Counted from the stretch's first letter, positions 36,199 to 56,105 are shown. The stretch is 64,000 nt of DNA from Chloroflexota bacterium (GCA_040752335.1 JBFMEV010000012.1:6487-70486); one strand, 5' to 3'. Notes: generated by a model not told the origin, from the letters alone. Program-made: numbers and translations.

Positions 36199-37182
36199 AT
36201 GCGCTTCGCGCTCATGATCGAGGCCCAGCAGGGCCTCTCCTACGCCGACCAGCTGGCGCTCGTCAGGCGGGCGGAGGCCGCCGGCTTCGAGGCCTTCTTC
36301 CGGAGCGACCACTACGCCAGCTTCCCGGGCCCCGCGGACAATCCCACGACCGATGCCTGGACGGTCCTCGCCGGCCTCGCCCGCGAGACCGAGCGCATCA
36401 CCCTCGGCGTGCTCGTCAGCCCGGTGACATTCCGTCACCCGGGCAACTTCGTGAAGGTCGTCACGACCGTCGACGAGATGAGCGGCGGGCGGATCGAGGT
36501 CGGCGTCGGGGCGGGCTGGAACGACGACGACCATCGGCCCCTGGGCCTCGAGTTCCCAGAGATCGGCGAGCGGGCCGACCTCATGGAAGACCAGCTGGCC
36601 CTCCTCCACGGCCTGTGGACCGAGCCCGACGGTTGGTCGTACGAGGGCCACCGCGTCCGGGTGGACGGCGGATTCCTGCGGCCCAGGCCGGTCGACGTCC
36701 CGGGCCGCCCGCGAACCGCCGACGGCAGGGTCCGGCCGCGGATCCTCGTCGGCGGCGAGGGCTCGCGGCGCGGGTTCCGGATCGCGGCACGCTATGCCGA
36801 CGAGTTCAACCTGACCTCGTCGTCCCCGGACCGGGCGGCCGGCAAGTTCGCCGAGCTGGATGCGGCCTGCCGGGCCGCCGGCCGGGAGCCGGCCTCGCTC
36901 ACGCACTCGGCGATGGTCGGGACGATGCTCGGCGCGACCGGCGCCGAGATCGAACGCCGGCGGGAGGCCCTCCTGGCCGCCCTCGGGTTCCAGGCCGACG
37001 GCGGCTCCGCCTGGTACGAGGCCCGCAAGGGCCGATGGATCCTGGGCATGCCCGACGAGGCCCGGGCCACGGTCCGCCGCTTCGCGGACGCCGGCGTGGA
37101 GCGGATCATGCTCCAGGACTTCCTGCCCTGGGACCTCGACATGGTCGACCTCATGGGCGCCGAGCTCATCGGCAAGGTCTAG
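36199..37182 (+). CDS. LLM-class (probably F420-dependent) oxidoreductase
   Basis: GFEAFFRSDHY, DAWTVLAGLARET, SPVTFRHPG, SGGRIEVGVGAGW. Confidence 0.9.
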   Translation: MRFALMIEAQQGLSYADQLALVRRAEAAGFEAFFRSDHYASFPGPADNPTTDAWTVLAGLARETERITLGVLVSPVTFRHPGNFVKVVTTVDEMSGGRIEVGVGAGWNDDDHRPLGLEFPEIGERADLMEDQLALLHGLWTEPDGWSYEGHRVRVDGGFLRPRPVDVPGRPRTADGRVRPRILVGGEGSRRGFRIAARYADEFNLTSSSPDRAAGKFAELDAACRAAGREPASLTHSAMVGTMLGATGAEIERRREALLAALGFQADGGSAWYEARKGRWILGMPDEARATVRRFADAGVERIMLQDFLPWDLDMVDLMGAELIGKV

Positions 37183-38068
37183 CTGGCCGGGCGAGCACCT
37201 GGCCCAAGCCGCGGCTGAAGCGCCACTCCGTCGTGAGGCGGAGCGTCGCGCCCGGCCCGAGGAGGTGGAGGCCGCCCGGCTCGCCCCCCAACAGGCGCCC
37301 GAGGCCCTGCGGCAGGTGGGTCTGGGGCTCGATCGCGACGGCCTCGAGGTTGGTCGGGCTGGCCAGCGCCACGCAGCGGCCGGCCTCCGACCGGAGCGAG
37401 ATCTCCGCCCGGAGCCCCAGCTTTGGCCAGTGCAGCTCCGCGATCGGATCGTCGAGGTCCGTCCAGGCCGCGTCGAGGCCGTCGGGGACGGGCCGGAGCC
37501 GTCGCAGGTCGAGGTCGCCGGTGACGGGCTGCAGCACCGCCCTGGGATCGCGGTTGGAAGGCACGACCCGCCTGCCCGCCAGGCGGACCTCGAGCGGGCG
37601 GCGGAACCAGGGATGGATGCCCAGCCCACCCGGCATCGGCTCGTCCGCGAGGTTCGTGAGCGAGAGCGCGATGTGCAGGGAGGCATCGTGGATCGTGATC
37701 CGCTGGGCCACCCTGTAGAACCACGGCCAGCCCCCACCGCCTCCTTGAACTACGAGCGAGCCATCGGTGGCACGGTCCCACGGCACGTCGACGACCTGGC
37801 CGTGGAGGGCCCACCCGTCACCGAACGACTCGGGCACCTGGACGATCCGATCGCCAACCGCCGTCGCGACCATCGGCAGGCGGTTGCACCAGGGGGCCAT
37901 CGTGTAGGCGCCCCAGCCAATCGGGTCCTCCAGGTGGACCTCGAGGCGCTCCGGCGTCCGGATGATGTCCTGCCCGAAGGCCCGAAGGCGATGAATCCGG
38001 GCGCCGAACCAGGGCAGCAGCTCGACCTCGAGCGGCCCGTCGGCGATCCGCAGGACGTCCTCGGCCAT
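37166..38068 (-). CDS. Aldose 1-epimerase (galactose mutarotase-like) protein
   Basis: MAPWCNR, ALHG, GLGIHPWF, AIEPQT. Confidence 0.85.
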   Translation of the reverse strand: MAEDVLRIADGPLEVELLPWFGARIHRLRAFGQDIIRTPERLEVHLEDPIGWGAYTMAPWCNRLPMVATAVGDRIVQVPESFGDGWALHGQVVDVPWDRATDGSLVVQGGGGGWPWFYRVAQRITIHDASLHIALSLTNLADEPMPGGLGIHPWFRRPLEVRLAGRRVVPSNRDPRAVLQPVTGDLDLRRLRPVPDGLDAAWTDLDDPIAELHWPKLGLRAEISLRSEAGRCVALASPTNLEAVAIEPQTHLPQGLGRLLGGEPGGLHLLGPGATLRLTTEWRFSRGLGQVLARPARPCR

Positions 38069-39444
38069 CAGCCGGCCAGGGTCATCGCGCGATCGGGACG
38101 GAGCAGGAACGGCGGCAGGTAGGCGGGGATGTTCGAGAGCGGCAGGACGTCGGGGTGGAGCTCGATGCCGAGGGCCTCGCCCATGAAGGCCCGGCGGGCC
38201 TGGATGCGCGACCACATCGCCGGGTACGCGGCGGCCAGGCTCGAACGCAGGGCGCCGTCGGCCAGGGCGATCCCGTCCTCGATGTTCGCCGTGAAATGGG
38301 GCCCGCCCGTCGCCGGGATGATGTCGACCTGCATGACCATCCCCGAGCGGAGCTCGATCGTGCCCCCGGGGGCGACCGGCGAGTTGACCCACTCGTCGAG
38401 GTGGAGCTGGTGGCCCGGGTTGAGGAAGATCCCGAAGAAGGGGTCGCCGAGCCGGCGATCGATGATCGCCTGCAGCTCCCCTCCACGGACCCCGACCCGG
38501 AGCGCCCCGTACCACTCGGCGACGGCCTCGAAGTAAGGCGCGACGAGCTTCTCGACGTAGTCCCCGATCTCGGCCGGCAGCTCCGCGGCGTCCTCGACGA
38601 CGAAGCCCGCCCGGCAGTTGAGCGCCCCCCAGATCCCGAAGGCGACGGTCAGCGGGTCGCCTCGCTCGATGACCCGGTCGCCGGGGCTCAGGAGCCCGTA
38701 GCGGGCCCGGGGGCCGGCGGTGAGCATGAGATGGCAGGACAGGGGGGCGCCGCTCCACTCGAGGAGCCCCACGGCCTCCCGTTCGCGAAGCCCGGGCCGC
38801 AGCCCCCACAGGAGGTTCCGGACGCCGGTCGACGTCTCGCCCGCGGCATGCTCGAAGGCCGCGATCTGCTCCGGCTCGTTGATGACGCGCAGCCCATCGG
38901 CGGCATCGATGAGGAGATCGGTGGCGTTCTCCACTGCCCCGGAGCTTCCGACGATGGAGCGGAGGGCGTCGATGAGGAAGGCCGGGGCGGCGTGCCAGGC
39001 TGGATCGGGACCCGTCTTCCAGCCGACGACCCCGATCCGGCCGCCCGTATCCACGCCGGCTTCGCGGAGGATCGCCTCGAGCGGCCTCGACCGATCCCGC
39101 GGCTGGCTCGGCAGGCTCAGCTCCTGGAAGAGGACGGCCTCGACCGGCAGCGGCGCGACCCGGGCCAGGCCGATGCACTCGTTGCCGGCCAGGAGGATCG
39201 GCCGCCCGGGGCCGCCGACGATGCAGATCGCCTCCTCGAACCGGGGGTCGAAGCCGGTGAGCCAGGCGAGGTTCGCGCTGTGCTCGCGATCCGCGTAGAC
39301 GACGAGCCGGTCGTAGCCGCGCGCCGCGGCCCGCTCCAGGAGCCGTTCGAGGCGGGCCGGATAGATCGACGCCGGCAGGGCGGGCGCGGCCTCGGAGCGG
39401 CCGAAGTCCGGCAGGTCGACGGATTCGAGCCGAGCTCGGTGCAT
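38068..39444 (-). CDS. M24 (Xaa-Pro aminopeptidase/creatinase) fold protein
   Basis: YADREHSAN..LTGFDPRFEEA, NPGHQLHLDEW, MQVDIIP, NIEDG. Confidence 0.75.
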   Translation of the reverse strand: MHRARLESVDLPDFGRSEAAPALPASIYPARLERLLERAAARGYDRLVVYADREHSANLAWLTGFDPRFEEAICIVGGPGRPILLAGNECIGLARVAPLPVEAVLFQELSLPSQPRDRSRPLEAILREAGVDTGGRIGVVGWKTGPDPAWHAAPAFLIDALRSIVGSSGAVENATDLLIDAADGLRVINEPEQIAAFEHAAGETSTGVRNLLWGLRPGLREREAVGLLEWSGAPLSCHLMLTAGPRARYGLLSPGDRVIERGDPLTVAFGIWGALNCRAGFVVEDAAELPAEIGDYVEKLVAPYFEAVAEWYGALRVGVRGGELQAIIDRRLGDPFFGIFLNPGHQLHLDEWVNSPVAPGGTIELRSGMVMQVDIIPATGGPHFTANIEDGIALADGALRSSLAAAYPAMWSRIQARRAFMGEALGIELHPDVLPLSNIPAYLPPFLLRPDRAMTLAG

Positions 39445-39449
39445 GGCGG

Positions 39450-41096
39450 TCAATCCTCGGGGCGCGTCGCGCGCACGGGATCCACGCCGCGCCCAACGAT
39501 CCAGATGCTGCCCGATTCGAGCCGCTGCCAGGGACCGACCTCGCCGTCCGGCCAGGTGACCCTCAGCTCCGCGGCGTTCGCCGGACCGAGCCCCACGTGC
39601 ATCGGCCCGAGCTGGCCCCCGGCGTGTCCGCCGCCGATCGTGACCTCGCGTTCGACGACGAGGTCGCCGATCGCGATCTCGACCCACGCCCCGATCGCGC
39701 TACGGTTCGGGCCGGGTTGGCGGAGCTCGAACGCGGTCCAGCGGCCCATGATCGCGGGGGCCACGGCCGTGCCCAACCCGACGTTCCGCCATACGATTGA
39801 CTCGGCTCCGTAGTTCATGAGCACGAGGTCGAGGAGTCCGTCCGTGTTGAGGTCGACGAGCGCGGCGCCACGGCCCCGCTCGTAGGTGACGATCCCGGCC
39901 TCGAGAGCGCCCTCGATGAAGGTCCCATCGGGCTGACCGAGGAAGAGGTTGCTCGGATCGCGCATGGCGTGGGTCGCCTGCTGCCCGACATTGCCCTTCG
40001 AGACGAACAGGTCGAGGAAGCCATCGTCGTTGACGTCGGCGAACTCGGGGTGCCAGGCGGTCGAGGGCAGGCCGTCGCCGCCGGCGTACGGCTGGGTCGC
40101 GGTCACGCCCCGTCGCAGGGCGATGTCCCGGAAGGTCGGCCTCGACGGTCCCGCGGTGAGGGTCTGGAGCTTGTTGTCGCCCTGGCTCGTGAGGTACACC
40201 TCCGGGTAGCCGTCGCCGGTCAGGTCCTGGCTGGCGATGCCCATGCCCCAGATCTGCATCGAGACCCAGCCGTCGTCGGCGGTGTAGAGCCGGGGTGGTT
40301 CGCCCGCGGCGATCCGCCACAGCTGGTCCATCCCGTCGCGGTAGTACTGGCGGTCGTTCGTGACCCGGAGGTCGCGCCGGCCCGAGCGATCCCAGTCGCT
40401 GAACAGCACGGACAGGCTGCAGAAGCCGGGCGCGAGCGTGAGAGGCGAGTCGTAACCGCTCCCGGACGGTCTGACGAGGGCGTTGGCATCGCAATCGAAT
40501 GTCTGCTCGCCGGCCGCGTCGAACGTCAGGTAACGCCCAAAAGCAAGCGTCGGGAGGCCCGCCTCGTCCTCCCACGTCGCGCTGAAGGCGGTGATCTGGC
40601 CGCCGACGGCGGCCAGTCCGAGCCCGGCGGTGACATCCTCAAAGGCGCAGTCGCCGCGGCCCCGGAGGAGGACCGGATCCCCTGTCCGGAGGACGACGAG
40701 GTCGGCGATTCCGTCGCCCTCGAGGTCGATGGGGTAGGCACCGTTGACACGGTCGAGGTCCGTGGCGTCGCCCTGCAGGTGCTCGAATCGGAGCTCGCCG
40801 CCGACCCCCGAGACGTTCCGATACAGCGCCGCCGGGGCCGCGCCGCCAGCGAGGTAGAGGTCCGGCCGGACGTCGCCGTCGCAGTCGAGCACCGCCACCC
40901 CACCGCCGACCTGGTACTCGGATGGGCCGTCGTAGCGATGAGCGATCCCCGACGAGATCGTTTCGTCGACGTACCGCGGGGCGCCGGCAGCGATGGTCGG
41001 CGTGGCGGTCCGAAGGAGGAGTGCGCCTGCCGCGCCGGCAGCCCCGATGACGCCGACCGCAGCGATCACGACGGTGAGCTGCCGCCCGCGGATCAC
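39450..41096 (-). CDS. Exported CRTAC1-family protein (FG-GAP repeats plus ASPIC/UnbV)
   Basis: Multiple DxDGDGxxDL repeats; WGMGIA; N..AIGAWVEI...GGGHAGG...HVGLG...VTWPDG. Confidence 0.88.
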   Translation of the reverse strand: MIRGRQLTVVIAAVGVIGAAGAAGALLLRTATPTIAAGAPRYVDETISSGIAHRYDGPSEYQVGGGVAVLDCDGDVRPDLYLAGGAAPAALYRNVSGVGGELRFEHLQGDATDLDRVNGAYPIDLEGDGIADLVVLRTGDPVLLRGRGDCAFEDVTAGLGLAAVGGQITAFSATWEDEAGLPTLAFGRYLTFDAAGEQTFDCDANALVRPSGSGYDSPLTLAPGFCSLSVLFSDWDRSGRRDLRVTNDRQYYRDGMDQLWRIAAGEPPRLYTADDGWVSMQIWGMGIASQDLTGDGYPEVYLTSQGDNKLQTLTAGPSRPTFRDIALRRGVTATQPYAGGDGLPSTAWHPEFADVNDDGFLDLFVSKGNVGQQATHAMRDPSNLFLGQPDGTFIEGALEAGIVTYERGRGAALVDLNTDGLLDLVLMNYGAESIVWRNVGLGTAVAPAIMGRWTAFELRQPGPNRSAIGAWVEIAIGDLVVEREVTIGGGHAGGQLGPMHVGLGPANAAELRVTWPDGEVGPWQRLESGSIWIVGRGVDPVRATRPED

Positions 41097-41103
41097 GGCT
41101 GGG

Positions 41104-42984
41104 TCATTGGACCGCGCTGCCGTCGTAGAAGTGCTGAGCCATGGCCCACGCGTCCTTGCCGCACCGCGACCCGATGATCCGGCCATTGAAGTCGTCGGCC
41201 GAGATGTGGATGCCGCCCCACAGCCGCGACTGGCCCGCCTGGTCGGCGGCGTCGAAGTAGGTTGCCCACTCCAGGCGGATGTCGGTCGTGGGGCCGAGCT
41301 CGAACTTGAGCGATCCGGCCGGAATGGTGTAGCCGCTCACCCCGCCGGGGAAGTATTCACTGCCGGTGAATGAGCTGAGCACCTCCGCGCCGGCCCGGCT
41401 GAACGTGCTGTGGCCGGAGATGTACCCCTGGAAGGCGGGCGTGACGAAGGTCGAGAGCTGGTACGGCACCCAGTCGACGGCGAGGATCCAGCCGACCCCG
41501 CCGACCTGCGTCTCCGGGTCCTCGGGGTTGCCCCTCCAGGCCCGGATCGCGATCTCGCCCTCGTGGCCGGCGAGCCCGGCATGGCGCTCGCCGGCCGCCG
41601 AGCTCGTCGCCGTGACGACCTCGATCAGGCCGGGGACGAGCGGCAGTCCGTCGGGGTCATACGCCGGCCCGGCCGGGTCGCTCGACTGGCCGAGGCCGCC
41701 CATGTACCGGATCATCGAGATCGGCCGGACCGAGTCGTAGTAGCCCTTCAGGCCCCAGGCGGCAATTGCCGCATCGTGGACCGCGCCGTTCAGGGCGAGG
41801 TAGAGCTTGACGTCCCATTCGAGGCGGCCCACCCGCATCCCGCTGCCGCCGATCCGGAGGTCCGGATCGAGCTCGTCCGAGACGAGATTCGCAAGGACGT
41901 TCCAGTGGCCCGGCGGGGTCTCCGACCTCGGGCCGTCGGCCCAGAACTCTGCCATCACCCGGCCGAAGTCACCTTCGTTGACGAGGTCGGGCGGGTACGG
42001 CTGGCCGGTCACCGGGTTGACCGGGTGCCCGCGGCCGTCGTTCGCGCCGAGCGAGTTGGCCCCGAGTGACCCCGGCGAGATGTCGATGATCTCGCCGTTT
42101 GCGGGATCCAGGCGGCTGCTGTCGCGGATCACCTCGACCGCCTGGTCCTTGTACGCCTGGTCTGTCGCGGTTCCGAGCATCGGTGGCGGGCCAGGATCGA
42201 TCGGAACCCCCGTCGCCCCGCCGTCGGGGATCGCAAAGCTCGTCACGTGGCCCCAGTGCGGCCCGACCGCCTGCTGCACGCCGTTCGTCACCGGGATCCC
42301 GTTCTGGGAGATCATGTGCTCGATCTGGAGTGGCTGCCAGCGATTCGGGTCGATCATCGTCGCCCCGGGCTCGTTGACCACGAGCGGTGGGTTGACCGGG
42401 GCGTAGTCCGGGGACGCGTAGCCGTCGGCCTGGTTCGAGCCGTCGCCGCCGGCGGTGTTGAGGATCGTCTTCGCGATCCGGTTCCCGATCGCGGCCGGGC
42501 TGTCGCCCACGACCGTGTCGACCGCCAGGTCGTAGCACAGCGAATCCATGACGTCGGCGAACTCGGAGAGTGACTCCTCGCCCCCCACGGCCTTGATGAA
42601 GCGGGCCGTGAGGACCCGATAGGCGGCGTAGCTGATGGCCTCGTCGCGGGCCGCCTCGATGTCGCCGGCGGTGTGCTTCTCGTGGACGAAGACGCCGTCG
42701 GCGGTGGCGTCGTAGCTGGCCCAGGCGTCCCACATCGCCGCCGAGAGGTGGTACAGGTTCCGGGCGTGGACCGGTGGGTTCGGCAGGGCCCGCCGGATCG
42801 CGTCGAGGAGCGCCTCGTCCCAGCGCCGGGCGACGGACCACTCCGGATGCTCTGTCGCTGCGGTCGCGGCACACGCGGTGGGCTTCGATTCCCAGGGCCG
42901 GACGACGACGGCCAAGGTCGTGGCACCCACGATCGCCACCGCCGCGACGGCGATGGCCATGATCCGCGCCTTGCCCCGTGGCAT
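41104..42984 (-). CDS. Exported vanadium-dependent haloperoxidase-like (PAP2 superfamily) protein
   Basis: N-terminal TM; K-x6-RP (KGYYDSVRP), PAFQGYISGHS, SRLWGGIH; FWADGP..ETPPGHW. Confidence 0.85.
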   Translation of the reverse strand: MPRGKARIMAIAVAAVAIVGATTLAVVVRPWESKPTACAATAATEHPEWSVARRWDEALLDAIRRALPNPPVHARNLYHLSAAMWDAWASYDATADGVFVHEKHTAGDIEAARDEAISYAAYRVLTARFIKAVGGEESLSEFADVMDSLCYDLAVDTVVGDSPAAIGNRIAKTILNTAGGDGSNQADGYASPDYAPVNPPLVVNEPGATMIDPNRWQPLQIEHMISQNGIPVTNGVQQAVGPHWGHVTSFAIPDGGATGVPIDPGPPPMLGTATDQAYKDQAVEVIRDSSRLDPANGEIIDISPGSLGANSLGANDGRGHPVNPVTGQPYPPDLVNEGDFGRVMAEFWADGPRSETPPGHWNVLANLVSDELDPDLRIGGSGMRVGRLEWDVKLYLALNGAVHDAAIAAWGLKGYYDSVRPISMIRYMGGLGQSSDPAGPAYDPDGLPLVPGLIEVVTATSSAAGERHAGLAGHEGEIAIRAWRGNPEDPETQVGGVGWILAVDWVPYQLSTFVTPAFQGYISGHSTFSRAGAEVLSSFTGSEYFPGGVSGYTIPAGSLKFELGPTTDIRLEWATYFDAADQAGQSRLWGGIHISADDFNGRIIGSRCGKDAWAMAQHFYDGSAVQ

Positions 42985-43018
42985 GTCGCCCGTCCTCCTC
43001 GCTGCCGAGTCGCCGAGT

Positions 43019-44032
43019 CTAGATCGCCAGGACCGCTTCGCGGGTGTCGGCCGCGAACAGCCGGTCGATCACCCGGAGGTTCGCGACCGCGTCGGCCGGC
43101 GGGACCGGCGTGGGCGTCCCGTCGAGGATCGCCGCGGCGAACCGCGAGGCCTCGACCGCATACGGATCGGCGGTGTCAAAGGTGAGCCGCTCCGTGGCCG
43201 GATCGACCGGCGGGTCCCCGCCGTGGGTGACGTAGACGTGGGTCGGCCGGTCGGGCGGGATGTTGAAGGGGATCCCGACCGAGATTCGGCCCTCGGTCCC
43301 GTAGACGTGGACCCGCTGGTCGTCCTCGGCCCGGATGGTGCAGGTGAACGTGGCGGTCCCGCCGCCGGCGAACTCGAGGAGGCCGCTCGTCAGGACATCG
43401 ACGCCGGTCGCCGGGTCACGCACGATCGAAGCCTCGACACGGGTCGGCTCGGACCCGAACAGCAGGCGCGACAGGTTGACGTTGTAGCAGCCGATGTCGA
43501 AGAGGGCACCGCCGCCGGCGTCGCGGATGTTCCGGATGTTGGTCGCATCGTCGTTGTAGTACGAGAACCAGCTCTGGACGGCCAGGAGGCGACCGATCCG
43601 CCCCGACCGCACGAGGTCGAGCACCGCGACCCACGAGGGGTGGAGGCGATACATGAAGGCCTCCATGAGCCGGACCCCGGCAGCCTCGGCCGCGGCGATC
43701 ATCCGCTCCGCGTCGGCGGCGGACATCGCCAGTGGCTTCTCGCACAGGATGTGCTTGCCGGCCCGGGCCGCGGCGATCGCCCACTCGGCGTGGAGGTGGT
43801 TGGGGAGCGGGATGTAGACGGCATCGACCTCCGGGTCGGCGAGGAGGGCCTCGTACGAGCCGTGGACCCTGGGGATCCCGGCCCCCGCGGCGGCCTCTCG
43901 CGCGCGGGCAAGATCCCGCGAGGCGATTGCCGTGATCCGGCAGCGTTCGGCCTTCCGGATGCCCGGGATGACCTTGGTCCGTGCGATGTCGGCGGTCGAG
44001 AGGATGCCCCAGCGCAGCTCGGTCGCAGTCAT
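43019..44032 (-). CDS. Gfo/Idh/MocA oxidoreductase (possible sugar dehydrogenase)
   Basis: WGILSTA, VYIPLPNHLH, LCEKP, GGGALFDIGCY. Confidence 0.9.
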   Translation of the reverse strand: MTATELRWGILSTADIARTKVIPGIRKAERCRITAIASRDLARAREAAAGAGIPRVHGSYEALLADPEVDAVYIPLPNHLHAEWAIAAARAGKHILCEKPLAMSAADAERMIAAAEAAGVRLMEAFMYRLHPSWVAVLDLVRSGRIGRLLAVQSWFSYYNDDATNIRNIRDAGGGALFDIGCYNVNLSRLLFGSEPTRVEASIVRDPATGVDVLTSGLLEFAGGGTATFTCTIRAEDDQRVHVYGTEGRISVGIPFNIPPDRPTHVYVTHGGDPPVDPATERLTFDTADPYAVEASRFAAAILDGTPTPVPPADAVANLRVIDRLFAADTREAVLAI

Positions 44033-44042
44033 CGGGGCGGTC

Positions 44043-44750
44043 TCAGCCCCACGACGTCTCGGTCACCGGCCGGAATGCGACCTCCAGGATCCGGTGGGTC
44101 CGGGGCCGCGTCACGACGAAGAGGACGGCCTCGGCGACGTCCTCGGGCCGCATCATCCCGGCCAGCTGGGGCATGTCCGGGGTCCGGCCGTGGCCCATCG
44201 CGAAGTCGGTCGCGACCCCGCCCGGGCAGACGTTGGTGCAGCGGACGCCGCGCTCCCGGAGCTCGTGGTCGAGGGCCGCGGTGAAGCCGACCTGGGCGAA
44301 CTTCGAGGCGCAGTAGACGGCCTCGTACGGCAGGCCCCGGCGACCGGCCTCCGACGCAATCGTCACGAGATCGGCGGCGTCGCTTCGGAGCAGGTGGGGG
44401 AGGGCCGCCCGGACGGCGTAGATGGCCCCCCGAACGTTGACGTTGATCATCTCCTCGATGTCCTCGACCGGGAGGTCGAGGAACGGGCCGTAGGCGCCGA
44501 CGCCGGCGTTCACCACGAGGATGTCCAGGCCGCCGAAGCGGTCGACGGTCGCCCCGACCATGGCCTCGAGCGACGCCGGGTCACGGACGTCGCAGGCGCG
44601 GGCAAACGCGCCCTCGATGCCGCCGTCGTCGCCGCTGCGCGAGGCCAGGGCGACCCGCGCTCCAGCCGCCGCCAGGACCCGGCCCGTGGCGGCGCCGATG
44701 CCGCGGCTGGCGCCGGTGATGAGGACGGCGCGGTCCTGCAGTGGGGTCAT
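44043..44750 (-). CDS. Short-chain dehydrogenase/reductase
   Basis: TGASRGIG, VNAG, YCASK. Confidence 0.92.
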   Translation of the reverse strand: MTPLQDRAVLITGASRGIGAATGRVLAAAGARVALASRSGDDGGIEGAFARACDVRDPASLEAMVGATVDRFGGLDILVVNAGVGAYGPFLDLPVEDIEEMINVNVRGAIYAVRAALPHLLRSDAADLVTIASEAGRRGLPYEAVYCASKFAQVGFTAALDHELRERGVRCTNVCPGGVATDFAMGHGRTPDMPQLAGMMRPEDVAEAVLFVVTRPRTHRILEVAFRPVTETSWG

Positions 44751-44861
44751 GGCACGGTTCCCTCGGGCTGGCGGGGTATGGCTGACGGGTGAGCGAGCCG
44801 GCACCGGTTGAGATCGCGTCTTGACAGTGCCCGCTCCCATCGACGAGCCTAGCACAGGCAA

Positions 44862-44882
44862 TTTGCAAGAGAGGAACACAAA
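44862..44882. promoter_or_regulatory. Putative ROK/XylR operator between the divergent SDR operon and the ROK gene
   Basis: TTTGCAA-N7-ACACAAA, same geometry as the xylA site; TTGACA at 44821. Confidence 0.55.
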
Positions 44883-44885
44883 CCG

Positions 44886-46121
44886 GTGCGATTGGGACGC
44901 GACGAGGTCGGACAGCGGAGCGAAACGGTCCGGCGAGCGAACCTCAGCGCAATCGTCCGCGAGCTGCACCTGCGTGGCCCCTTGTCCCGGTCGGAGCTTG
45001 TCGCGCGGACCGGGCTCACCCGGAGCGCCATCCGGGCCCTGATCGGCGAGCTCGTCGCCGGCGAGCTCGTGCTGGAGGAGCCGGCGGTGCCGAGCGGGAC
45101 CCCGGGCCGGCCCTCGCCGGTCGTCCGCCTCGCCGCCGACCGCCTGGTGGTGCTGGCCCTCGAGATCGCCGTCGACTCGCTCGCCGTGGCCATCGTCGGC
45201 GCCGGTGGCGTCGTCCTCGAGCATCGCCGGGTCGACCGGCCGCGCGGCCACTTCAGCCTCGACGAGATCGTGGCCGACCTGGTCGAGCTCGCCGCCGACG
45301 TCCGAAGCCGCCGGCCGGCCGGGGAGGTGCCCCTGCGGGTCGCAGTCGCGGTGGCCGGCCTCGTCAGCCGGTCTGACGGCCTGGTCCGGTTCGCGCCGAA
45401 CCTCGGCTGGGTGGACGTGCCGCTCGGGGCGCGGCTGGCCGATGCGCTGGCCCTGCCGGTCGAGGTGGTGATCGGCAACGAGTCCGACCTGGGTGCCCTG
45501 GCCGAGCTTCGACGAGGGGCGGCCCGCGGCGCCGACGACGCCCTCTACATCCATGGCGAGGTCGGCGTCGGCGGCGGGATCATCGTTGCCGGCCGGCCCC
45601 TCGACGGGGTCGGCGGCTACGGCGGCGAGATCGGCCACATGCCCGTCAATCCGGCCGGCCGGGCCTGCCGCTGCGGCTCGTCCGGATGTTGGGAGACAGA
45701 GGTCGGTGAGGGCGCACTCCTGGCCCGCGCCGGCTACCCGCTCGATGGCGGCCGGACCGCCGTGAACGCCGTCCTGGCGGACGCCGCCGCCGGCCGCGCG
45801 GAGGCGCTGGCGGCGATCGAGGCGACGGGGACCTGGCTGGGCCGCGGCCTGGCCGGGCTGGTCAACATCCTCAATCCGCGCCGGGTCGTCCTCGGCGGCC
45901 TGTTCGCGCGGATCTATCCCTTCGTCGACGATGTCGTGGCCCGCGGCCTCGACAGGTTCGCCCTCGTGGCACCCCGGCAGCTCGTGTCGGTCGTGCCGTC
46001 GACGCTCGGCGTCGATGCGCCGCTGCTCGGCGCCGCCGAGATGGCCTTCGAGCCGCTCATCGTCGATCCGGCCGCGTGGCTGGCGCCGCGCGGTGCGCTC
46101 GTCACCCTGGCGAGCGCATGA
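44886..46121 (+). CDS. ROK-family repressor, XylR-like
   Basis: HTH (SRSELVARTGLT), GRP, GEIGH, CRCGSSGCWE; adjacent to xyl genes. Confidence 0.9.
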   Translation: MRLGRDEVGQRSETVRRANLSAIVRELHLRGPLSRSELVARTGLTRSAIRALIGELVAGELVLEEPAVPSGTPGRPSPVVRLAADRLVVLALEIAVDSLAVAIVGAGGVVLEHRRVDRPRGHFSLDEIVADLVELAADVRSRRPAGEVPLRVAVAVAGLVSRSDGLVRFAPNLGWVDVPLGARLADALALPVEVVIGNESDLGALAELRRGAARGADDALYIHGEVGVGGGIIVAGRPLDGVGGYGGEIGHMPVNPAGRACRCGSSGCWETEVGEGALLARAGYPLDGGRTAVNAVLADAAAGRAEALAAIEATGTWLGRGLAGLVNILNPRRVVLGGLFARIYPFVDDVVARGLDRFALVAPRQLVSVVPSTLGVDAPLLGAAEMAFEPLIVDPAAWLAPRGALVTLASA

Positions 46122-46277
46122 TCGCCGTTCGCTCCGCGGGGCCAACCCGCCCGCAGCGGCCCGCGGCCGAGGAGCGAGCCACTGTCCCGGGAGCCGCAGC
46201 AGCCGTTGAGGAGGGTGCTAGCCTACGAGAGTTCGCCAAGGTAGGACGACGAACGTGCTGAGGAGGAGAGAACACTG

Positions 46278-47417
46278 ATGATTCTGCGCAGGGTAGCGGT
46301 CCTGACCGCGGTGGCCGCGATGGTCGTCGCGGCGTGCGGGACCACCGGGTCACCGGCGCCGAGTGGCGCCACCGCCGACTGCACGGTCGGCGTGTCCTGG
46401 AACAACTTCCAGCAGCCCCGCTGGGCGGCGCACGACGAGCCCAACCTGAAGAAGACCGTCGAGGATGGCGGCGGCAAGTACATCAGCGCCGACGCCAACC
46501 TCAGCGCAGAGCAGCAGTTGACCGACGTCGACACGCTGATCTCGAACGGCGCGGATGTCCTCATCCTGCTCGCGCAGGACAACAAGGCCATCCTGCCGGC
46601 GCTCCAGAAGGCCAAGGATGCGGACGTCCCCGTCATCGCCTACGACCGCCTCATCGAGGATGCCAGCATCCTCTACATCACGTTCGATAACGTGCTCGTC
46701 GGCAAGGCCGAGGCCGAGGCCATCCTGGCCAAGGTCCCGACCGGGAACTACGTCCTGATCAAGGGCGACCCCGGCGATCCGAACGCCTCGACGTTCCTGC
46801 CCCAGGGCTGGGATGAGGCCGGCCTCGCGGACAAGGTCGCTTCGGGCGACATCACCATCCTGAACGGGCCCGACGGGACGTTCACGGACGCCTGGAAGAC
46901 CGAGAAGGCCCAGCAGAACATGGAAGCGATCATCGACAAGGCCGTCGCCGACGGCAACACGATCGATGCCATCCTGGCCGAGAACGACAGCACGGCGCTC
47001 GGCGTCGTGGGCGCCCTCACGGCCAAGAGCTACGGCTTCCCGCCCCTGAGTGGCCAGGACGGCGATCCCGCCAACCTGAACAACGTCGCCCTGGGCAAGC
47101 AGTACGTGGACGTCTTCAAGAACGCCAACGAGCTGGGCAAGACCGCCGGCGCGGCCGCGCTCGAGCTGTGCAAGGGGACCGCGATGGCCAGCCTGACGCT
47201 GCCCAGCGGCCTCATCGACCCGGGCGTCGCCCCGGTCGCCGGCCTCTCTGCCAAGCCGTTCACGACACCGGACGGGACCTCTGTCCAGTCCTTCATCCTG
47301 CAGCCGACGCCGCTCACCGCGGAGAACCTGCAGGTCGCGATCGATGCTGGCCAGATCACCAAGGAGGACCTCTGCAAGGGTGTCGACCCCGCGACGGGGC
47401 CGGCGGCGTGCAAGTAG
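46278..47417 (+). CDS. xylF: Xylose/sugar ABC transporter binding lipoprotein
   Basis: VAAC lipobox; VSWNNFQQPRW, IAYDRLI, ITFDN, GQDGD. Confidence 0.85.
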   Translation: MILRRVAVLTAVAAMVVAACGTTGSPAPSGATADCTVGVSWNNFQQPRWAAHDEPNLKKTVEDGGGKYISADANLSAEQQLTDVDTLISNGADVLILLAQDNKAILPALQKAKDADVPVIAYDRLIEDASILYITFDNVLVGKAEAEAILAKVPTGNYVLIKGDPGDPNASTFLPQGWDEAGLADKVASGDITILNGPDGTFTDAWKTEKAQQNMEAIIDKAVADGNTIDAILAENDSTALGVVGALTAKSYGFPPLSGQDGDPANLNNVALGKQYVDVFKNANELGKTAGAAALELCKGTAMASLTLPSGLIDPGVAPVAGLSAKPFTTPDGTSVQSFILQPTPLTAENLQVAIDAGQITKEDLCKGVDPATGPAACK

Positions 47418-47449
47418 CGGTCATCCGACCGCGTAACCAGCCATAGGCT

Positions 47450-47482
47450 CCTGCGCCCCCGGGGTCCTCCCGGGGGCGCAGG
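47450..47482 (+). terminator. Perfect hairpin after the binding-protein gene (attenuator or mRNA stabiliser)
   Basis: CCTGCGCCCCCGGG-gtcct-CCCGGGGGCGCAGG. Confidence 0.75.
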
Positions 47483-47510
47483 CCATGAGTCCAGGGCCAG
47501 GAGGGCCGCC

Positions 47511-48833
47511 GTGACGAACGTGGCCGACGCGACACCGGTATCCGGTCAGGTTCAGCCTCCCGCCCGAGTGTCCGTTCGCGGACTCATCGCCCAGACGGAG
47601 ATTGATCTCCGTCTGTTCGGCATGCTCGTCGCCCTCGGAGCCATCCTGCTGACCTTCAACATCCTGAGCGAGGGCGACCTCTTCCAGCCGACCAACATGG
47701 TCACGATGGCGGTCCAGGCGTCGGGCATAGCGATCATCGCCACGGGCATGGTCCTGGTCATCGTGTCGCGCAACATCGACCTGTCTGTCGGCTCGCTGGT
47801 CGGCGTCATCGCCATGACCTACGCCCTGCTGATGACCGACTGGTTGCCCGCGCTGGGGATGGGCGCCGACTTCCCGTTCCGCTGGGCCATCGCCCTCGGC
47901 CTCGGCGTCGGCCTCGGAGCGCTCGTGGGCGGGCTCCAGGGGTACATCATCGCCTACGTCGGCGTGCCGTCGTTCATCGTCACACTGGGCGGGCTGCTCT
48001 CCATCCGCGGCGCCATCTGGTATCTCTCGAATGGCGCCGCCGTCTCGGGGCTGGACCCGAGCTTCCAGCTCATCGGTGGCGGGGCCCAGGGATCGATCGG
48101 TGGCACCCTCACCTGGGCCCTCGGCCTCGTGGGCTGCCTCGCGATCGTCGCGCTTCTCATCAACGGCCGGCGCCAGCGGCGGCGATTCGGCTTCCCCGTG
48201 AGACCGATGTGGGCGGAGGGCCTGATCGGCGTGGTCGGCTGCGCGGCGGTGCTCGGCGTTGCCGCGTTCGCCAATGCCAACCTCTGGCCCCAGGGTCTCG
48301 CCAACCGGATCGCCGCCGAACAGAACTGGGGTCCGGCGCCCGCAGACGGCTGGATGATCCCGACCGGGTTCCCCAACCCGATCATGCTGCTGATCGGCGT
48401 GACCCTGGTGATGACCTTCATGGCCAATCGCCGGCGGTTCGGGCGGTACGTGTACGCCTACGGCGGCAATCCCGATGCGGCGGAGCTGGCGGGCATCAAC
48501 ACCCGCTGGACGATCCTCAAGACCTACGTCCTGATGGGCATCCTGTGCGCCCTCGCGGCCGCGATCGCGTCGGCCCGGCTGAACGGGTCCACGCTCGACG
48601 TCGGCCTGAGCTACGAGCTGTACGTCATCGCCGCCGCAGTGGTCGGCGGCACCTCGTTCGCCGGCGGCATCGGGACGATCCCGGGGGCCGTGCTCGGGGC
48701 GTTCGTCATGCAGTCGCTGGCCTACGGGCTCAGCTTCATCGGCGTCAACTCGCCCGGCCAGAACGTGGTGGCCGGAATCGTGCTGATCCTCGCGGTCGGC
48801 TTCGACACGTTCAACCGCCGGCGCGGTTCATGA
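47511..48833 (+). CDS. xylH: Sugar ABC transporter permease
   Basis: IDLSVGS, VPSFIVTLGG, FGRYVYAYGGN, YELYVIAAAVVGGTS. Confidence 0.88.
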   Translation: MTNVADATPVSGQVQPPARVSVRGLIAQTEIDLRLFGMLVALGAILLTFNILSEGDLFQPTNMVTMAVQASGIAIIATGMVLVIVSRNIDLSVGSLVGVIAMTYALLMTDWLPALGMGADFPFRWAIALGLGVGLGALVGGLQGYIIAYVGVPSFIVTLGGLLSIRGAIWYLSNGAAVSGLDPSFQLIGGGAQGSIGGTLTWALGLVGCLAIVALLINGRRQRRRFGFPVRPMWAEGLIGVVGCAAVLGVAAFANANLWPQGLANRIAAEQNWGPAPADGWMIPTGFPNPIMLLIGVTLVMTFMANRRRFGRYVYAYGGNPDAAELAGINTRWTILKTYVLMGILCALAAAIASARLNGSTLDVGLSYELYVIAAAVVGGTSFAGGIGTIPGAVLGAFVMQSLAYGLSFIGVNSPGQNVVAGIVLILAVGFDTFNRRRGS

Positions 48834-48853
48834 GCGGCAGGGAGGACTGATCC

Positions 48854-49651
48854 GTGACTGTCGCGGAGCGAGCGCCGCTCGTCGAGATGCGCAACATCAA
48901 CGTCGCCTTCGGTGGCGTTCACGCGGTGCACGACGTGACCATCGACCTCTATGCGGGCGAGGTCATCGGCCTCGTCGGCGGCAACGGAGCCGGCAAGTCG
49001 ACGCTGATGCGCGCGCTGTCTGGCGCCCATCCGGCTGACACCGGCGAGATCCTCGTCGATAGCAAGCCGGTGACCATCCGCAATCCGCGCGACGCCAAGG
49101 CCTACAACATCGAGACCATCTACCAGACCCTGGCCCTCGCCGACAACATCGACGCGCCCGGAAACCTGTTCCTGGGCCGCGAGAAGACGACCCGCCTGGG
49201 CAGCATGGACGACTCGGCGATGGAGTCCGAGACGCGCAAGGTCATGGGCCGCCTCAATCCCAACTTCACGCGCTTCAAGATGCCCGTGAAGTCCCTGTCG
49301 GGCGGCCAGCGCCAGGCGGTCGCGATCGCGCGCGCCGTCTACTTCAACGCCCGCATCCTGATCATGGACGAGCCCACTGCAGCGCTCGGTCCGGCCGAGA
49401 CGGCGCAGGTTCGAAACCTCGTGCGCCAGCTCAAGGACGAGGGCATCGGGATCTTCCTCATCAGCCACGACATCCACGACGTCTTCGACCTGTCCGACCG
49501 GATCAGCGTCATGTACCACGGCGAGATCGTCGACACCGTCAGGAAGTCGAATGTCACGCCGGATGACGTCCTCGGCATGATCATCCTCGGCAAGAAGCCC
49601 GGCGAGGTCAGCGAGAAGGAGCTCGCCGAGCTCGAGCTGCGCACCCAGTGA
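48854..49651 (+). CDS. xylG: Sugar ABC transporter ATPase (single NBD)
   Basis: [21 protein letters not shown]. Confidence 0.88.
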
Positions 49652-49683
49652 CCGCTCGGCCGTCCAGACGGGCGGCCGGACGT

Positions 49684-51168
49684 TCAGCCGCGGCGAAACG
49701 TGGGGGCGAGGGCCGGATACAGCTCCCGGTACGCCGCGTGGCCCGCGGCGTAGGCGCTTCGCGCAGGCCCCGGCGAGGCCGCCGGGCTCGTCCGGACGAG
49801 TGACGCCGCGGCCGACGTCACGTCGTGATACCAGCCCGCGCCGGTTGCCGCGAGGACGGCCGCGCCGAAGGCCGCGCCCTCCTTCGTGGACGTCGTCACG
49901 AGCTCGGTATCGAGGACGTCGGCGAGGATCTGGCACCACAGCTCGCTGGCCAGCCCGCCACCCGACGCGCGGATCTGGGCCGGCCGGGCCATTCCCGCCC
50001 CGAGCATGAGGTCGAGGCCGTCGCGCAGGCCAAAGGCGACCCCCTCGAGGACGGCCCGCGTGAGGTGGCGTCGGTCGTGCTGGACGGTGAGGCCCACGAA
50101 GGCGCCCCTGGCGAATGGATCGGGGTACGGGCTCCGTTCACCGGTCAGGTAGGGCAGGAAGAAGAGGCCGTCGGCCGCGGCCTCGACCTCCGCCGCCGGC
50201 GCGACGAGCTCGCCGAACCCCTCGCCCGGCGCGAGCGCGTCGCGGAACCAGCGCAGGCTGCCCGCGGCAGAGAGCATCACCGACATGAGGTGCCAGCGTT
50301 CCGGCACCGCGTGACAGAAGGCATGGACCCGGCCGTGCGCCTCGTGGATGGGAGCGTGCGTCGCCGCGAAGACCACGCCGGACGTCCCGAGCGAGAGGGC
50401 CACCACGCCCTCGGAGACGGCACCGACCCCGACCCCGTTCGCCGATTGGTCGCCACCACCCGCGACGACGGGCGTGCCGGCCCCGAGTCCCGTGGCCGCG
50501 GCCGCGGCCGGCGTCAGGCGCCCGGTGACCTCGGGGCCCTCATGGGTGGGCGGGAACCAGGCCGGGTCGAGCTCGAGGGCGGCAAGGACCTCACCCGACC
50601 AGGTCCGGGCGGCGAGGTCGAACAGGATCGTGCCCGAGCCGTCGGCCGTGTCCATCGCGTACTCGCCGGTGAGGCGGAGCCGGAGGTAGTCCTTGGGCAG
50701 GAGGACGTGGGCGAGGTCGGCCCAGGTCGCCGGCTCATGGCGCCGCACCCACAGGAGCTTGGGCGCGGTGAAGCCGGTGATCGCGTCGTTGCCGGTGACC
50801 TCGATGAGACGCTCTGCGCCCACCGCCCGCCGCATCTCGTCGCATTCCGCCGCGGTCCGCTGGTCGTTCCAGAGGATCGCCGGCCGGAGGACCTCCCCGG
50901 CCGCGTCGAGGAGGACCGCGCCGTGCATCTGGCCGGTCAGCCCGATGGCCTCGACGTCTGTGCCCTGCGCCCCGGCGCCTGCGAGCGCCCGGCCGATGGC
51001 CGTCACCGCCCCGTCCCACCAGAGGGCCGGATCCTGCTCGCTCCAGAGCGGCCTCGGCGTCTCGTAGCCGTACTCGGCGACGCCGATGCCGCCGACGGCT
51101 CCGTTGGCGTCGACGAGGACGGCCTTCGTCGCTGTCGTCGAGACGTCGATACCGAGGACGAGGCCCAT
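49684..51168 (-). CDS. xylB: Xylulokinase
   Basis: GLTGQMHG, ILWNDQR, LLPKDY, GGGDQ, LPYLTGER; downstream of xylA. Confidence 0.95.
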   Translation of the reverse strand: MGLVLGIDVSTTATKAVLVDANGAVGGIGVAEYGYETPRPLWSEQDPALWWDGAVTAIGRALAGAGAQGTDVEAIGLTGQMHGAVLLDAAGEVLRPAILWNDQRTAAECDEMRRAVGAERLIEVTGNDAITGFTAPKLLWVRRHEPATWADLAHVLLPKDYLRLRLTGEYAMDTADGSGTILFDLAARTWSGEVLAALELDPAWFPPTHEGPEVTGRLTPAAAAATGLGAGTPVVAGGGDQSANGVGVGAVSEGVVALSLGTSGVVFAATHAPIHEAHGRVHAFCHAVPERWHLMSVMLSAAGSLRWFRDALAPGEGFGELVAPAAEVEAAADGLFFLPYLTGERSPYPDPFARGAFVGLTVQHDRRHLTRAVLEGVAFGLRDGLDLMLGAGMARPAQIRASGGGLASELWCQILADVLDTELVTTSTKEGAAFGAAVLAATGAGWYHDVTSAAASLVRTSPAASPGPARSAYAAGHAAYRELYPALAPTFRRG

Positions 51169-51198
51169 GGCGTCAGCGATCGGCCGAGGTCGGACTCG

Positions 51199-52557
51199 TC
51201 AGCGCCCCGGGCCGCCCTCGCCGCCGTCGATCGCCCAGATCTCGCGGTTGACGAGGTTCTCCAGGAGCTCCTGCCGGCCCGAGACCGGCGTCGGGTCGAT
51301 CTCGCCCGTCAGGACCCGACCGGCGAGCATCTCGAAGAGGGCGCCGCCCGCCAGGATCGAGCGCCCGAGCTCGCCGTCCCAACCGGCGTAGCGGGCCGCC
51401 CGGAGCCGATCGATCTCCCCCCGCTCGATCATCCCGGCCGCCGCGAGGAGCGCCCGGGCGAGGGTGTCGATGCCGCCGATATGGGCGTGGACGAGGTCGG
51501 TCCGATCGACGCTCTGGCGGCGCAGCTTGGCATCGAAGTTGAAGCCGCCGGTCGTGAAGCCGCCGGAGCGGACGATCTCGTAGAGGGCGAGCGAGAGCTC
51601 GTCGACCGAGTTCGGGAACTGGTCGGTGTCCCAGCCGTTCTGGTAGTCGCCCCGGTTGGCATCGATGCTGCCGAAGATGCCGAGGGCGATGGCCTGGGCG
51701 ACCTCGTGGTGGAAGCTGTGGCCGGCGAGCGTGGCGTGGTTGGCCTCCAGGTTGACCCGGTACTCCTTCTCCAGCCCGTGCCGGGCGAGGAAGCCGTAGA
51801 CGGTCGCCGCGTCGTAGTCGTACTGATGCTTGGTGGGCTCCTGGGGCTTGGGCTCGATGAGGAGGCTGCCCTTGAAGCCGATCCGGTGCTTGTGCTCCGC
51901 GACCATCGCCAGGAAGCGGCCAAGCTGGCGCTCTTCGCGGGCGAGATCGGTGTTGAGGAGGGTCTCGTAGCCTTCGCGGCCGCCCCACAGGACGTAGTTC
52001 TCGCCGCCCAGGCGGTGGGTGGCCTCGAGCATGACCTTGACCTGGGCCGCCGCGTAGGCGAAGACCTCCGGGTCCGGGTTCGTCGCGGCGCCGGCCGCGT
52101 AGCGCGGGTGGCTGAAGAGGTTGGCCGTGCCCCACAGGAGGCGGACGCCCGTTCGGGCCATGTGAGCCTGGGCGTCATCGAGGATGGCGTGGAGGTTCGC
52201 GGTCGCCTCGGCGAACGTCGCGCCCGCCGGGGCGATGTCCCGGTCGTGGAAGCAGAAATAGGGGACGCCGAGCTTCTCGAAGAGCTCGAAGGCGGCGTCG
52301 AGCTTGGCCCGGGCAGCCAGCATCGGCTCCAGGCGCGGGTCGAGCCACGGCCGGTCGAAGGTTCCCGCGCCGAAGACGTCGGAGCCGGGCCAGTTGAACG
52401 AGTGCCAGTAGCAGACCGCGATCCGGAGGTGGTCGGCCATCCGCTTGCCGAGGACGAGCCGATCGGGCTGGTAGACCTTGTAGCTGAGCGGATCATCCGA
52501 CCCGAGGCCGCCGAACGGGATCGGACCGGAAACGGCCGGGAAGAATGGTTGGTTCAT
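51199..52557 (-). CDS. xylA: Xylose isomerase (class II)
   Basis: [41 protein letters not shown]; SD GGAGG before ATG 52557. Confidence 0.97.
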
Positions 52558-52621
52558 GTCAGGACCTCCACGACCGGCACGCGGGGCATCGTGCCGGGGC
52601 CTTGGCAGACCGAGTCCGCCG

Positions 52622-52655
52622 AGCGTAGCACACATTTGTGCGACACCAGCACAAA
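52622..52655 (-). promoter_or_regulatory. xylA extended -10 promoter overlapped by a palindromic operator
   Basis: TGcTACGCT on the minus strand; perfect TTTGTGC-N7-GCACAAA at 52635-52655. Confidence 0.7.
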
Positions 52656-52677
52656 ACTGGTCCGGGGTCGGGTAACG

Positions 52678-52749
52678 ATCATCCTCCGGCTCACCAGCCC
52701 ATCATGTACGGCTCACCAGCCGATCATCTGCGGCTCACCAGCCGATCAC
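52678..52749. repeat. Three tandem 22-23-bp units each containing a hairpin CGGCT-cacc-AGCC(G)
   Basis: ATCATcctCGGCTCACCAGCCC / ATCATgtaCGGCTCACCAGCCG / ATCATctgCGGCTCACCAGCCG. Confidence 0.85.
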
Positions 52750-52781
52750 GCCCTGATCATCCGCCGGTCGGTCGGCCGGGA

Positions 52782-56060: not shown

Positions 56061-56105
56061 GGGACTCCTTCGGTCGCTCATGCGGTCGCTCGATCTGACC
56101 CGCTG

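Follow-up and report, generated by a model that had tools for sequence, protein, structure and literature searches.

Organization of the Xylose Locus

We analyzed a window of 64,000 nt from a metagenome-assembled genome (MAG) of the class Limnocylindria, phylum Chloroflexota (G+C 72%; genome 3.2 Mb), in which a minus-strand operon encodes an enzyme resembling the vanadium-dependent haloperoxidases (VHPOs) and a CRTAC1-type propeller protein beside genes for xylose use. Genes were called from codon-position G+C, inspection of start codons, and Pfam/NCBIfam profiles. The operon runs in the order short-chain dehydrogenase/reductase (SDR), Gfo/Idh/MocA oxidoreductase, VHPO-like enzyme, CRTAC1/ASPIC propeller, M24-fold protein, and aldose-epimerase-like protein, with intergenic gaps of 10, 34, 7, and 5 nt and, at the last junction, an overlap of 1 nt between the stop of the M24-fold gene and the start of the epimerase-like gene. 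The genes of a ROK regulator and a CUT2 transporter are divergent from this operon, and xylB and xylA are convergent with the transporter. Profile searches and start-codon analysis thus confirmed what a first-pass annotation had described, namely the content and order of the operon, its divergence from ROK-xylFHG, and the xylAB neighborhood.

The VHPO-fold (PAP2-superfamily) enzyme (positions 41104–42984, minus strand) is 626 aa long, has an N-terminal anchor, and matches DUF6851 at 57 bits and VCPO_2nd at 48 bits. The CRTAC1-type propeller (39450–41096, minus strand; 548 aa, GTG start) combines an N-terminal membrane anchor with an FG-GAP propeller (FG-GAP_3, 66.5 bits) and a UnbV_ASPIC domain (41.7 bits). 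The anchor segments expected on both proteins appear as helices in the AlphaFold2 (AF2) models, at residues 3–23 of the VHPO-like protein and 2–27 of the propeller.

The organism is a soil or groundwater Chloroflexota bacterium with xylose-utilization genes as a gain-or-loss island. This accessory island holds a ROK repressor, 21-bp operators, a xylFHG-like transporter, xylA, and xylB, and the divergent operon adds cytoplasmic sugar oxidoreductases and two N-terminally anchored proteins on the outer face of the membrane.

The VHPO-Like Enzyme Has the Predicted Fold and Active Site of the VHPO Family

All three vanadate/phosphate motifs attributed to the VHPO-like protein can be read directly from its sequence: K413-x6-R420-P421, S523-G524-H525, and R587-x5-H593-x3-D597. 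In a 41-sequence alignment with an identity span of 40–82%, the motif residues are invariant or at least 90% conserved, with D597 invariant. They make up the PAP2 signature KX6RP / PSGH / SRX5HX3D, which reads KGYYDSVRP, ISGH, and SRLWGGIHISAD in this protein. Two further residues, W410 (three before the Lys) and F518 (five before the Ser), are also conserved in at least 90% of the alignment, and they may be the counterparts of Trp350 and Phe397 in the halide pocket of vanadium chloroperoxidase (VCPO). A conserved block specific to the clade, WADGPxSETPPGHW, occupies residues 348–361.

In the AF2 model (predicted local distance difference test score, pLDDT, 91.1; predicted template modeling score, pTM, 0.90), the N-terminal helix is followed by a disordered tether (residues 24–49) and a folded body. 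When the model was searched with Foldseek, the top 17 ranks were all VHPOs (E 7e-22 to 4.5e-12), led by XhnO11, NapH1, and NapH3 (E ∼1e-21, target TM-score 0.75–0.81), with fungal VCPO (1e-13) and the Zobellia iodoperoxidase behind the bacterial VHPOs. Class A acid phosphatases reached E values of 0.05–0.2 and query TM-scores of 0.15–0.20. Sequence searches of the PDB with the VHPO-like protein agree with this ranking, and a protein of 626 aa does not have the compact, ∼220-aa single-bundle fold of the acid phosphatases. By modeled fold and by active site, the VHPO-like protein is a member of the VHPO family. Its own family is large, with 4888 clusters at 50% identity (E≤0.001), and is common in soil and groundwater metagenomes; PF21167 was found in 0 of 14 control genomes.

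The Propeller Resembles a Calcium-Binding Scaffold

The AF2 model of the propeller protein (pLDDT 92.3) shows the anchor helix, a β-propeller, and a β-sandwich ASPIC domain. Its best Foldseek match is murine CRTAC1 (PDB code 9etn; E = 5.8e-22, TM-score 0.69), followed by integrin alpha chains and generic propellers. Six DxDxDG-type loops begin at D71, D124, D236, D291, D354, and D415, and their Asp and Gly residues are at least 90% conserved among 42 propeller sequences. Across the same 42 sequences no His, Cys, or Tyr is conserved; the near-invariant positions are the Asp and Gly of the calcium loops and a few structural residues. With such a pattern of conservation, the protein looks more like a calcium-dependent binder or scaffold than like an enzyme. 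A copper-radical oxidase, considered as a candidate for the propeller, was rejected because the conserved His, Cys, and Tyr are absent.

One propeller orthologue (P0275) has an unassigned N-terminal half of ∼560 aa that contains hydrophobic, membrane-like segments. This half has a homologue (43% identity; L105:4963–6504) that adjoins the propeller in a locus of a congener without a VHPO-like gene.

The Two Proteins Are Paired and Repeatedly Fused

We surveyed 201 Limnocylindria genomes for gene presence, distance, and order. The VHPO-like gene is present in 55 of them, and the propeller gene is adjacent to it in 51 of the 55 (these class tallies include three genomes flagged as unpublished, and dropping them shifts each count by no more than 2). 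The adjacent pairs occur in three arrangements, VHPO then propeller (23), propeller then VHPO (18), and divergent (10), and two of the four non-adjacent genomes have the pair split across contigs.

Fusions link the same two domains. Of the best 150 of the 4888 VHPO-like representatives (43–67% identical), 82 are longer than 900 aa, and 42 carry a propeller in the same chain as judged by an iterative local hidden Markov model, 40 at the N-terminal and 2 at the C-terminal end; Pfam confirmed the propeller in five of seven sampled. Eight other long forms carry type IX secretion system tails (four cases), SdrD_B, MopE, Laminin_G_3/TSP3, CWB2, or nothing recognizable. The recognized fusion partners other than the propeller are all surface modules, and unfused homologues bear lipoprotein-type signals. 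From the propeller side, 23 of the 120 longer relatives listed carry VHPO-like domains, and 22 of these 23 are 53–57% identical; judged by sequence, and with one of them (P0276) checked, these 22 are fusions of the orthologous pair.

That the two genes have stayed adjacent through two or more rearrangements, and have been fused more than once, is strong evidence of joint function. The propeller and the VHPO-like enzyme very probably form a functional unit at the cell surface, in line with the extracytoplasmic two-protein module that the first-pass annotation had envisaged. Co-folding of residues 50–626 of the VHPO-like protein with residues 36–458 of the propeller, which omits the C-terminal ASPIC domain and was run without controls, gave scores of 0.00, 0.54, and 0.00, which weigh neither for nor against the pairing. 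A literature search that left supplementary files aside returned no publication on DUF6851 or on a pairing of VHPO with CRTAC1.

The same propeller family is joined to other enzymes as well. In P0298, a propeller region 51% identical to that of the window is fused to Cytochrome c and DHOR domains with two CxxCH motifs; in P0363, a propeller of this family is fused to CCP_MauG; and an Atlas cluster contains 132 CCP_MauG+ASPIC proteins, commonest in Chloroflexota. These fusions lend support to the earlier suggestion that the peroxidase partner is interchangeable. One metagenome contig with a distant VHPO-like gene also encodes, ∼4 kb away, a DHOR-like di-heme protein (L156:3579–5036) that shares 34% identity with P0298 over the latter's N-terminal half.

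The Propeller Tracks the Xylose Genes

Across the 201 class genomes, the propeller is present in 88, xylA in 84, and both in 74. Where propeller and xylA share a contig, 59 of 60 pairs lie within 15 kb. A VHPO-like gene is found in 53 of the 88 propeller-positive genomes; among the others, 29 have xylA, and 24 have the propeller 6–10.5 kb from xylA. The VHPO-less locus of a congener is arranged as SDR-Gfo-propeller divergent from ROK-xylFHG, and that of another genus as SDR-Gfo-propeller-M24. Since VHPO-less genomes keep the propeller near xylA, the propeller is the standing member of the locus and the VHPO-like enzyme its optional partner, which shifts the emphasis of the original description from the enzyme to the propeller.

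Of seven genomes sampled from the window's genus, the same four, among them the window's own, contain propeller and xylA together, and the remaining three have neither. The locus as a whole acts as an accessory island. We also fetched 80 related loci with the VHPO-like protein, all from Limnocylindria/Chloroflexota MAGs and many on short contigs. By tblastn, the propeller was found in 71 of these loci, xylF in 64, xylH in 63, xylG in 61, Gfo in 58, ROK in 56, xylB in 51, xylA in 48, the M24-fold gene in 43, SDR in 26, and the epimerase in 18. In a sample of 301 Chloroflexota genomes, seven, including the window's, have full-length, high-identity orthologues. One of the seven, G158, belongs to another Chloroflexota family; in its more divergent locus, xylFHG is directly divergent from VHPO-propeller and ROK is absent.

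When metagenomes were scanned with an alignment of 7 distant unfused homologues, another 80 loci were recovered. The 53 that resemble those of the class include 7 with the pair fused, 28 with the pair adjacent, and 17 with xyl genes, and in several others of this group the pair stands beside a second, different CUT2 sugar transporter. The 27 distant loci include 1 fused and 1 adjacent pair. The N-terminal extensions (∼350–600 aa) of eight open reading frames (ORFs) for distant homologues have no Pfam domain and may be non-coding read-through in high-GC DNA. The sugar link is a feature of Limnocylindria, and the link between propeller and enzyme spans phyla. Within this class, the tie of the propeller to xylose use is somewhat more probably functional than merely historical.

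Operators Mark the ROK Gene and xylA

The ROK regulator (XylR-like; 44886–46121, plus strand, 411 aa) matches Pfam ROK at 160 bits and has a weak N-terminal helix-turn-helix. Its promoter carries a −35 element, TTGACA (44821–44826, plus strand), conserved as CTTGACA in 44 of 55 divergent regions (54 loci and the window). Downstream, in the ROK leader, the 21-bp operator TTTGCAAGAGAGGAACACAAA (44862–44882, plus strand) overlaps the ROK Shine-Dalgarno sequence. A conserved TTGACA followed by an operator over the Shine-Dalgarno sequence is the classical layout of an autoregulated repressor. The second operator, the 21-bp palindrome TTTGTGC-N7-GCACAAA (52635–52655), lies 78 nt upstream of xylA.

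The pattern TTTGNNN-N7-NCACAAA matches these two sites and no others, either in the window, where 0 matches were expected from 100 shuffles, or in the 3.2-Mb genome; the similar operators first noticed at the divergent promoter and at xylA are therefore the only two sites genome-wide. In the related loci (1.37 Mb), all 84 matches lie at ROK or xylA, 3–26 nt before the ROK start in 42 of 56 ROK-bearing loci and upstream of xylA in 25 of 48 xylA-bearing loci. Control of the VHPO/propeller operon by the ROK-side operator is possible.

Between ROK and xylF (46122–46277), the motif GCTAGGCTA or its complement is conserved in 29 of 52 regions (51 loci and the window); a second promoter or operator serving xylFHG is one possible role. 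Immediately past the operator of xylA, at 52676–52748, stand 3.3 tandem copies of a 22-bp unit with the consensus CGATCATCTACGGCTCACCAGC.

Neighboring Genes

The first gene of the operon (44043–44750, minus strand) encodes a 235-aa SDR (adh_short, 168.6 bits). The second (43019–44032, minus strand) encodes a cytoplasmic Gfo/Idh/MocA NAD(P) oxidoreductase of 337 aa (GFO_IDH_MocA, 90 bits; C3 domain, 96 bits), whose top NCBIfam match, D-xylose 1-dehydrogenase Gfo6, scores 132 bits, far under the cut-off of 350. The M24/creatinase-fold protein (38068–39444, minus strand; 458 aa) has no export signal and matches Peptidase_M24 (20.1 bits) and Creatinase_N (19.9 bits) below cut-off. Its best PDB match is the dipeptidase 1wn1 (3e-06), in an alignment that places Ala at the first Asp metal ligand; from this comparison, it is probably not a canonical di-metal peptidase. 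Its gene follows that of the propeller in 43 of the 80 related loci, and Atlas clusters for M24-like proteins are labeled hypothetical or creatinase/M24-like only. In one protein of 1037 aa (P0274), the propeller is fused to an M24-fold protein 69% identical to that of the window over 453 aa. A genuine fusion would place the M24-fold protein on the outer side of the membrane; alternatively, a stop codon may have been lost. The last gene (37166–38068, minus strand) encodes an aldose-1-epimerase-like protein of 300 aa (Aldose_epim, 46.1 bits, cut-off 27).

The three genes of the CUT2-type sugar ABC transporter (46278–49651, plus strand) match Peripla_BP_4, BPD_transp_2, and ABC_tran. They encode a xylF-like binding protein (46278–47417, plus strand; TIGR02634, 261.2 bits), a permease (47511–48833, plus strand), and an ATPase (48854–49651, plus strand). 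Two further genes were assigned above cut-off, the xylulokinase xylB (49684–51168, minus strand; TIGR01312, 548.5 bits, cut-off 380.25) and the class II xylose isomerase xylA (51199–52557, minus strand, 452 aa; TIGR02630, 642.6 bits, cut-off 533.25). The earlier assignment of the xyl genes therefore stands for xylA and xylB, whereas the xylF-like gene falls below its cut-off and the xylA start has moved, since ATG 52557 behind the ribosome-binding site GGAGG is the most likely start rather than 52635. Among the 80 related loci, the binding protein is of two types, ∼46–52% or 62–94% identical to that of the window. Taken jointly, xylF and xylH fall into classes of ∼44–58% or ∼62–94% identity, and the ATPase is 72–95% identical. 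Two types of binding protein and permease with a steady ATPase suggest that specificity components have been swapped within one locus.

Beyond xylA, a stretch of ∼2.9 kb (52701–55620) has no ORF passing the codon-position G+C filter, and two long ORFs within it (52822–53949, minus strand; 53972–55144, plus strand) match no Pfam family. At 55620–58391, a nickel superoxide dismutase (Sod_Ni, 127 bits) stands beside a GH18 chitinase-like protein with three CWB2 repeats, which are cell-wall-binding and suggest a Gram-positive-type wall. A DDE_3 transposase with helix-turn-helix domains (12097–13212), ∼24 kb from the island, is the sole mobile-element gene among the ORFs scanned.

Proposed Function and Alternatives

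We tentatively propose, at a little short of even confidence, that the pair works as one unit at the cell surface. The propeller would bind or scaffold an extracellular substrate that contains xylose, and the VHPO-like enzyme would apply peroxide-type chemistry to it. The enzyme would use peroxide on the material so held, in the manner of a vanadate-dependent haloperoxidase, through either hypohalous acid or direct oxidation. The treated material would be conditioned or released, and the pentose imported by the ABC transporter, to be catabolized via XylA and XylB or oxidized by the SDR and Gfo enzymes.

Several results weigh against this proposal. Of the 88 propeller-positive genomes, 35 have no VHPO-like gene, and a local tblastn search of three VHPO-less loci (L105–L107) found no di-heme peroxidase in its place. 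No source of hydrogen peroxide, xylanase, or xylosidase was found among the ORFs scanned, at the locus or elsewhere in the window, and the xylF-like protein scores under the curated xylF cut-off of 389.55 bits. The association of propeller with xylA (2×2 table 74/14/10/103, odds ratio 54) ignores kinship among the genomes. The ROK-side operator lies anywhere from 87 to 358 bp away from the gene that opens the divergent operon, and no second conserved site near that operon was seen in the aligned divergent regions; because the operator keeps its place relative to ROK and not to the VHPO operon, membership of this operon in the regulon, and its induction by sugar, are no more than possibilities. 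Of 19 distant homologues from metagenomes that had 3 kb or more of flanking sequence, 0 lay near xyl genes, and the tie to xylose may therefore reflect the history of the lineage. The linkage of the pair to xyl genes that had been predicted from the window thus held within Limnocylindria and failed among these distant homologues.

The chemistry of the enzyme is a further matter. A serious if doubtful alternative places the VHPO-like protein among the extracytoplasmic, vanadium-independent phosphatases or phosphoryl-transfer enzymes of the PAP2 superfamily. It would then dephosphorylate sugar phosphates or phosphorylated glycans outside the cell so that both sugar and phosphate could be taken up, with the propeller as a calcium-dependent substrate-binding partner. 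The protein has the exact signature KX6RP / SGH / SRX5HX3D with an invariant D597 and keeps this ancestral set, while its nearest solved relatives, NapH3 and 9ptr, are without the motif-2 His; the adjoining sugar ABC transporter also fits. The apo-VCPO entry (PDB code 3bb0) is titled as catalyzing dephosphorylation, and since the motif set is common to PAP2 phosphatases, sequence cannot separate the two chemistries, which further weakens the peroxide proposal. Nor does the fold guarantee halogenation, as the title of the NapH3 entry (PDB code 8cxl) describes a non-halogenating protein. Against a phosphatase, the predicted fold is that of a two-bundle VHPO (E ∼1e-21) and not of a compact acid phosphatase (0.05–0.2), and the Trp at −3 from the Lys and the Phe at −5 from the Ser, which would correspond to residues of the VCPO halide pocket, are conserved. 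Moreover, the alternatives to the VHPO-like domain in fusions with this propeller family are of the di-heme peroxidase type and not phosphatases; because VHPOs and these partners both use hydrogen peroxide, their exchange hints at peroxide chemistry. On this evidence, peroxide-type rather than phosphatase chemistry is a real possibility for the VHPO-like enzyme, just short of probable.

It is also conceivable, albeit unlikely, that the xylose tie is historical only, the propeller, with or without its enzyme, being a general envelope module for peroxide handling, adhesion, or defense that landed beside xyl genes in an ancestor of Limnocylindria and rides with the xyl island without acting on xylose substrates. 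The 0 of 19 result, an operator geometry that serves ROK rather than the divergent operon, and the lack of glycoside hydrolases at the locus would all agree with such a passenger. However, gain and loss of propeller and xylA coincide within the genus, and the adjacency outlasts changes in the genes between, SDR and Gfo being variable and the VHPO-like gene standing first in nine loci. The divergent locus of G158 keeps xylFHG opposite VHPO-propeller even without ROK, and the class-like metagenome loci tie the pair to a different CUT2 sugar transporter. Far less probable still is that the propeller itself oxidizes sugar and produces peroxide, like a propeller copper-radical oxidase, with its partner consuming or exploiting the product. 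Galactose oxidase and GlxA are among the fold matches (E ∼1e-7, TM-score ∼0.4), and the partners found all belong to peroxide-using enzyme families. Those matches, however, are generic seven-blade propellers ranked below the integrins, the family as a whole conserves no His, Cys, or Tyr, and in 35 of 88 genomes the propeller occurs without a VHPO-like partner.

Returning to the proposed surface unit with peroxide-type chemistry, a much broader and quite improbable extension is that CRTAC1-type propellers with an interchangeable peroxide-using partner (VHPO-like, di-heme CCP/MauG, or DHOR) are widespread, undescribed bacterial surface machines that harvest substrates with the help of peroxide, and the extracellular front end of pentose acquisition in Limnocylindria. 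If so, oxidation by the module would loosen hemicellulose, lignocellulose, or humic-bound sugars on the propeller and make xylose available for import, and soil Chloroflexota would incidentally contribute to the natural formation of organohalogens. Our literature search found no studied member of the very large VHPO-like clade; the xylose island, with its definable operator and regulator, offers concrete substrates, inducers, and partner proteins for one. It is the bacterial CRTAC1-type propeller, not the enzyme, that tracks a sugar-uptake system. Should the enzyme be a true haloperoxidase, the abundant Limnocylindria would be candidates for biotic halogenation and for oxidative attack on plant polymers in soils; should it be a phosphatase, the annotation “vanadium-dependent haloperoxidase” on thousands of records would be misleading.

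Comparison with Known Systems

ROK-family xylose repressors with palindromic operators include XylR of the Firmicutes and Rok7B7 of Streptomyces, which is encoded next to xylFGH. The Limnocylindria island likewise has ROK beside xylFHG and inverted repeats before xylA and in the regulator's own leader; its operator, TTTGTGC-N7-GCACAAA, is defined from footprints in aligned sequences alone.

The VHPO-like enzyme has a two-bundle fold in common with the NapH1/XhnO11-type VHPOs (3w35/3w36, 9l8x, 9ptr) and NapH3 (8cxl). Sequence matches to these relatives range from 1.8e-18 to 3e-10 (phmmer), with the W-x2-K-x6-RP and SR-x5-H motifs aligned, although the VHPO-like protein is only ∼20% identical and ∼100–150 residues longer, and its WADGPxSETPPGHW block did not align to these chains. 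The settings differ as well, since the NapH1/XhnO11 type belongs to natural-product clusters, whereas the VHPO-like protein is membrane-anchored, paired with or fused to a propeller, and encoded in a sugar locus. VCPO of Curvularia inaequalis (1vnc and mutants) is a more distant match by fold (E = 1e-13) and profile (7e-08). The VCPO active-site residues Lys353, Arg360, Arg490, and His496, as named by Hemrika (1999), all have motif counterparts in the VHPO-like protein, to which VCPO, a secreted, soluble, stand-alone fungal enzyme, is ∼16% identical. An old proposal, mentioned in PMC11724547, gives secreted fungal VCPO a role in breaching lignocellulose, and this provides a precedent, not evidence, for oxidative attack on plant polymers. 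The acid phosphatases PhoN, PhoC, and EB-NSAP (1eoi, 9qcj, 7f17) have the catalytic signature KX6RP, SGH, SRX5HX3D in common with the VHPO-like protein; as ∼220-aa single-bundle proteins, however, they match its fold only weakly (E 0.05–0.2).

For the propeller, our literature search found no function for any bacterial CRTAC1/UnbV member. Murine CRTAC1 (9etn) and the bacterial CRTAC1/UnbV family have the same order of domains, an FG-GAP propeller followed by ASPIC/UnbV (phmmer 6e-10). In contrast to murine CRTAC1, to which it is 19% identical, the propeller of the window is membrane-anchored, lies in a sugar operon, and is paired with or fused to an enzyme.

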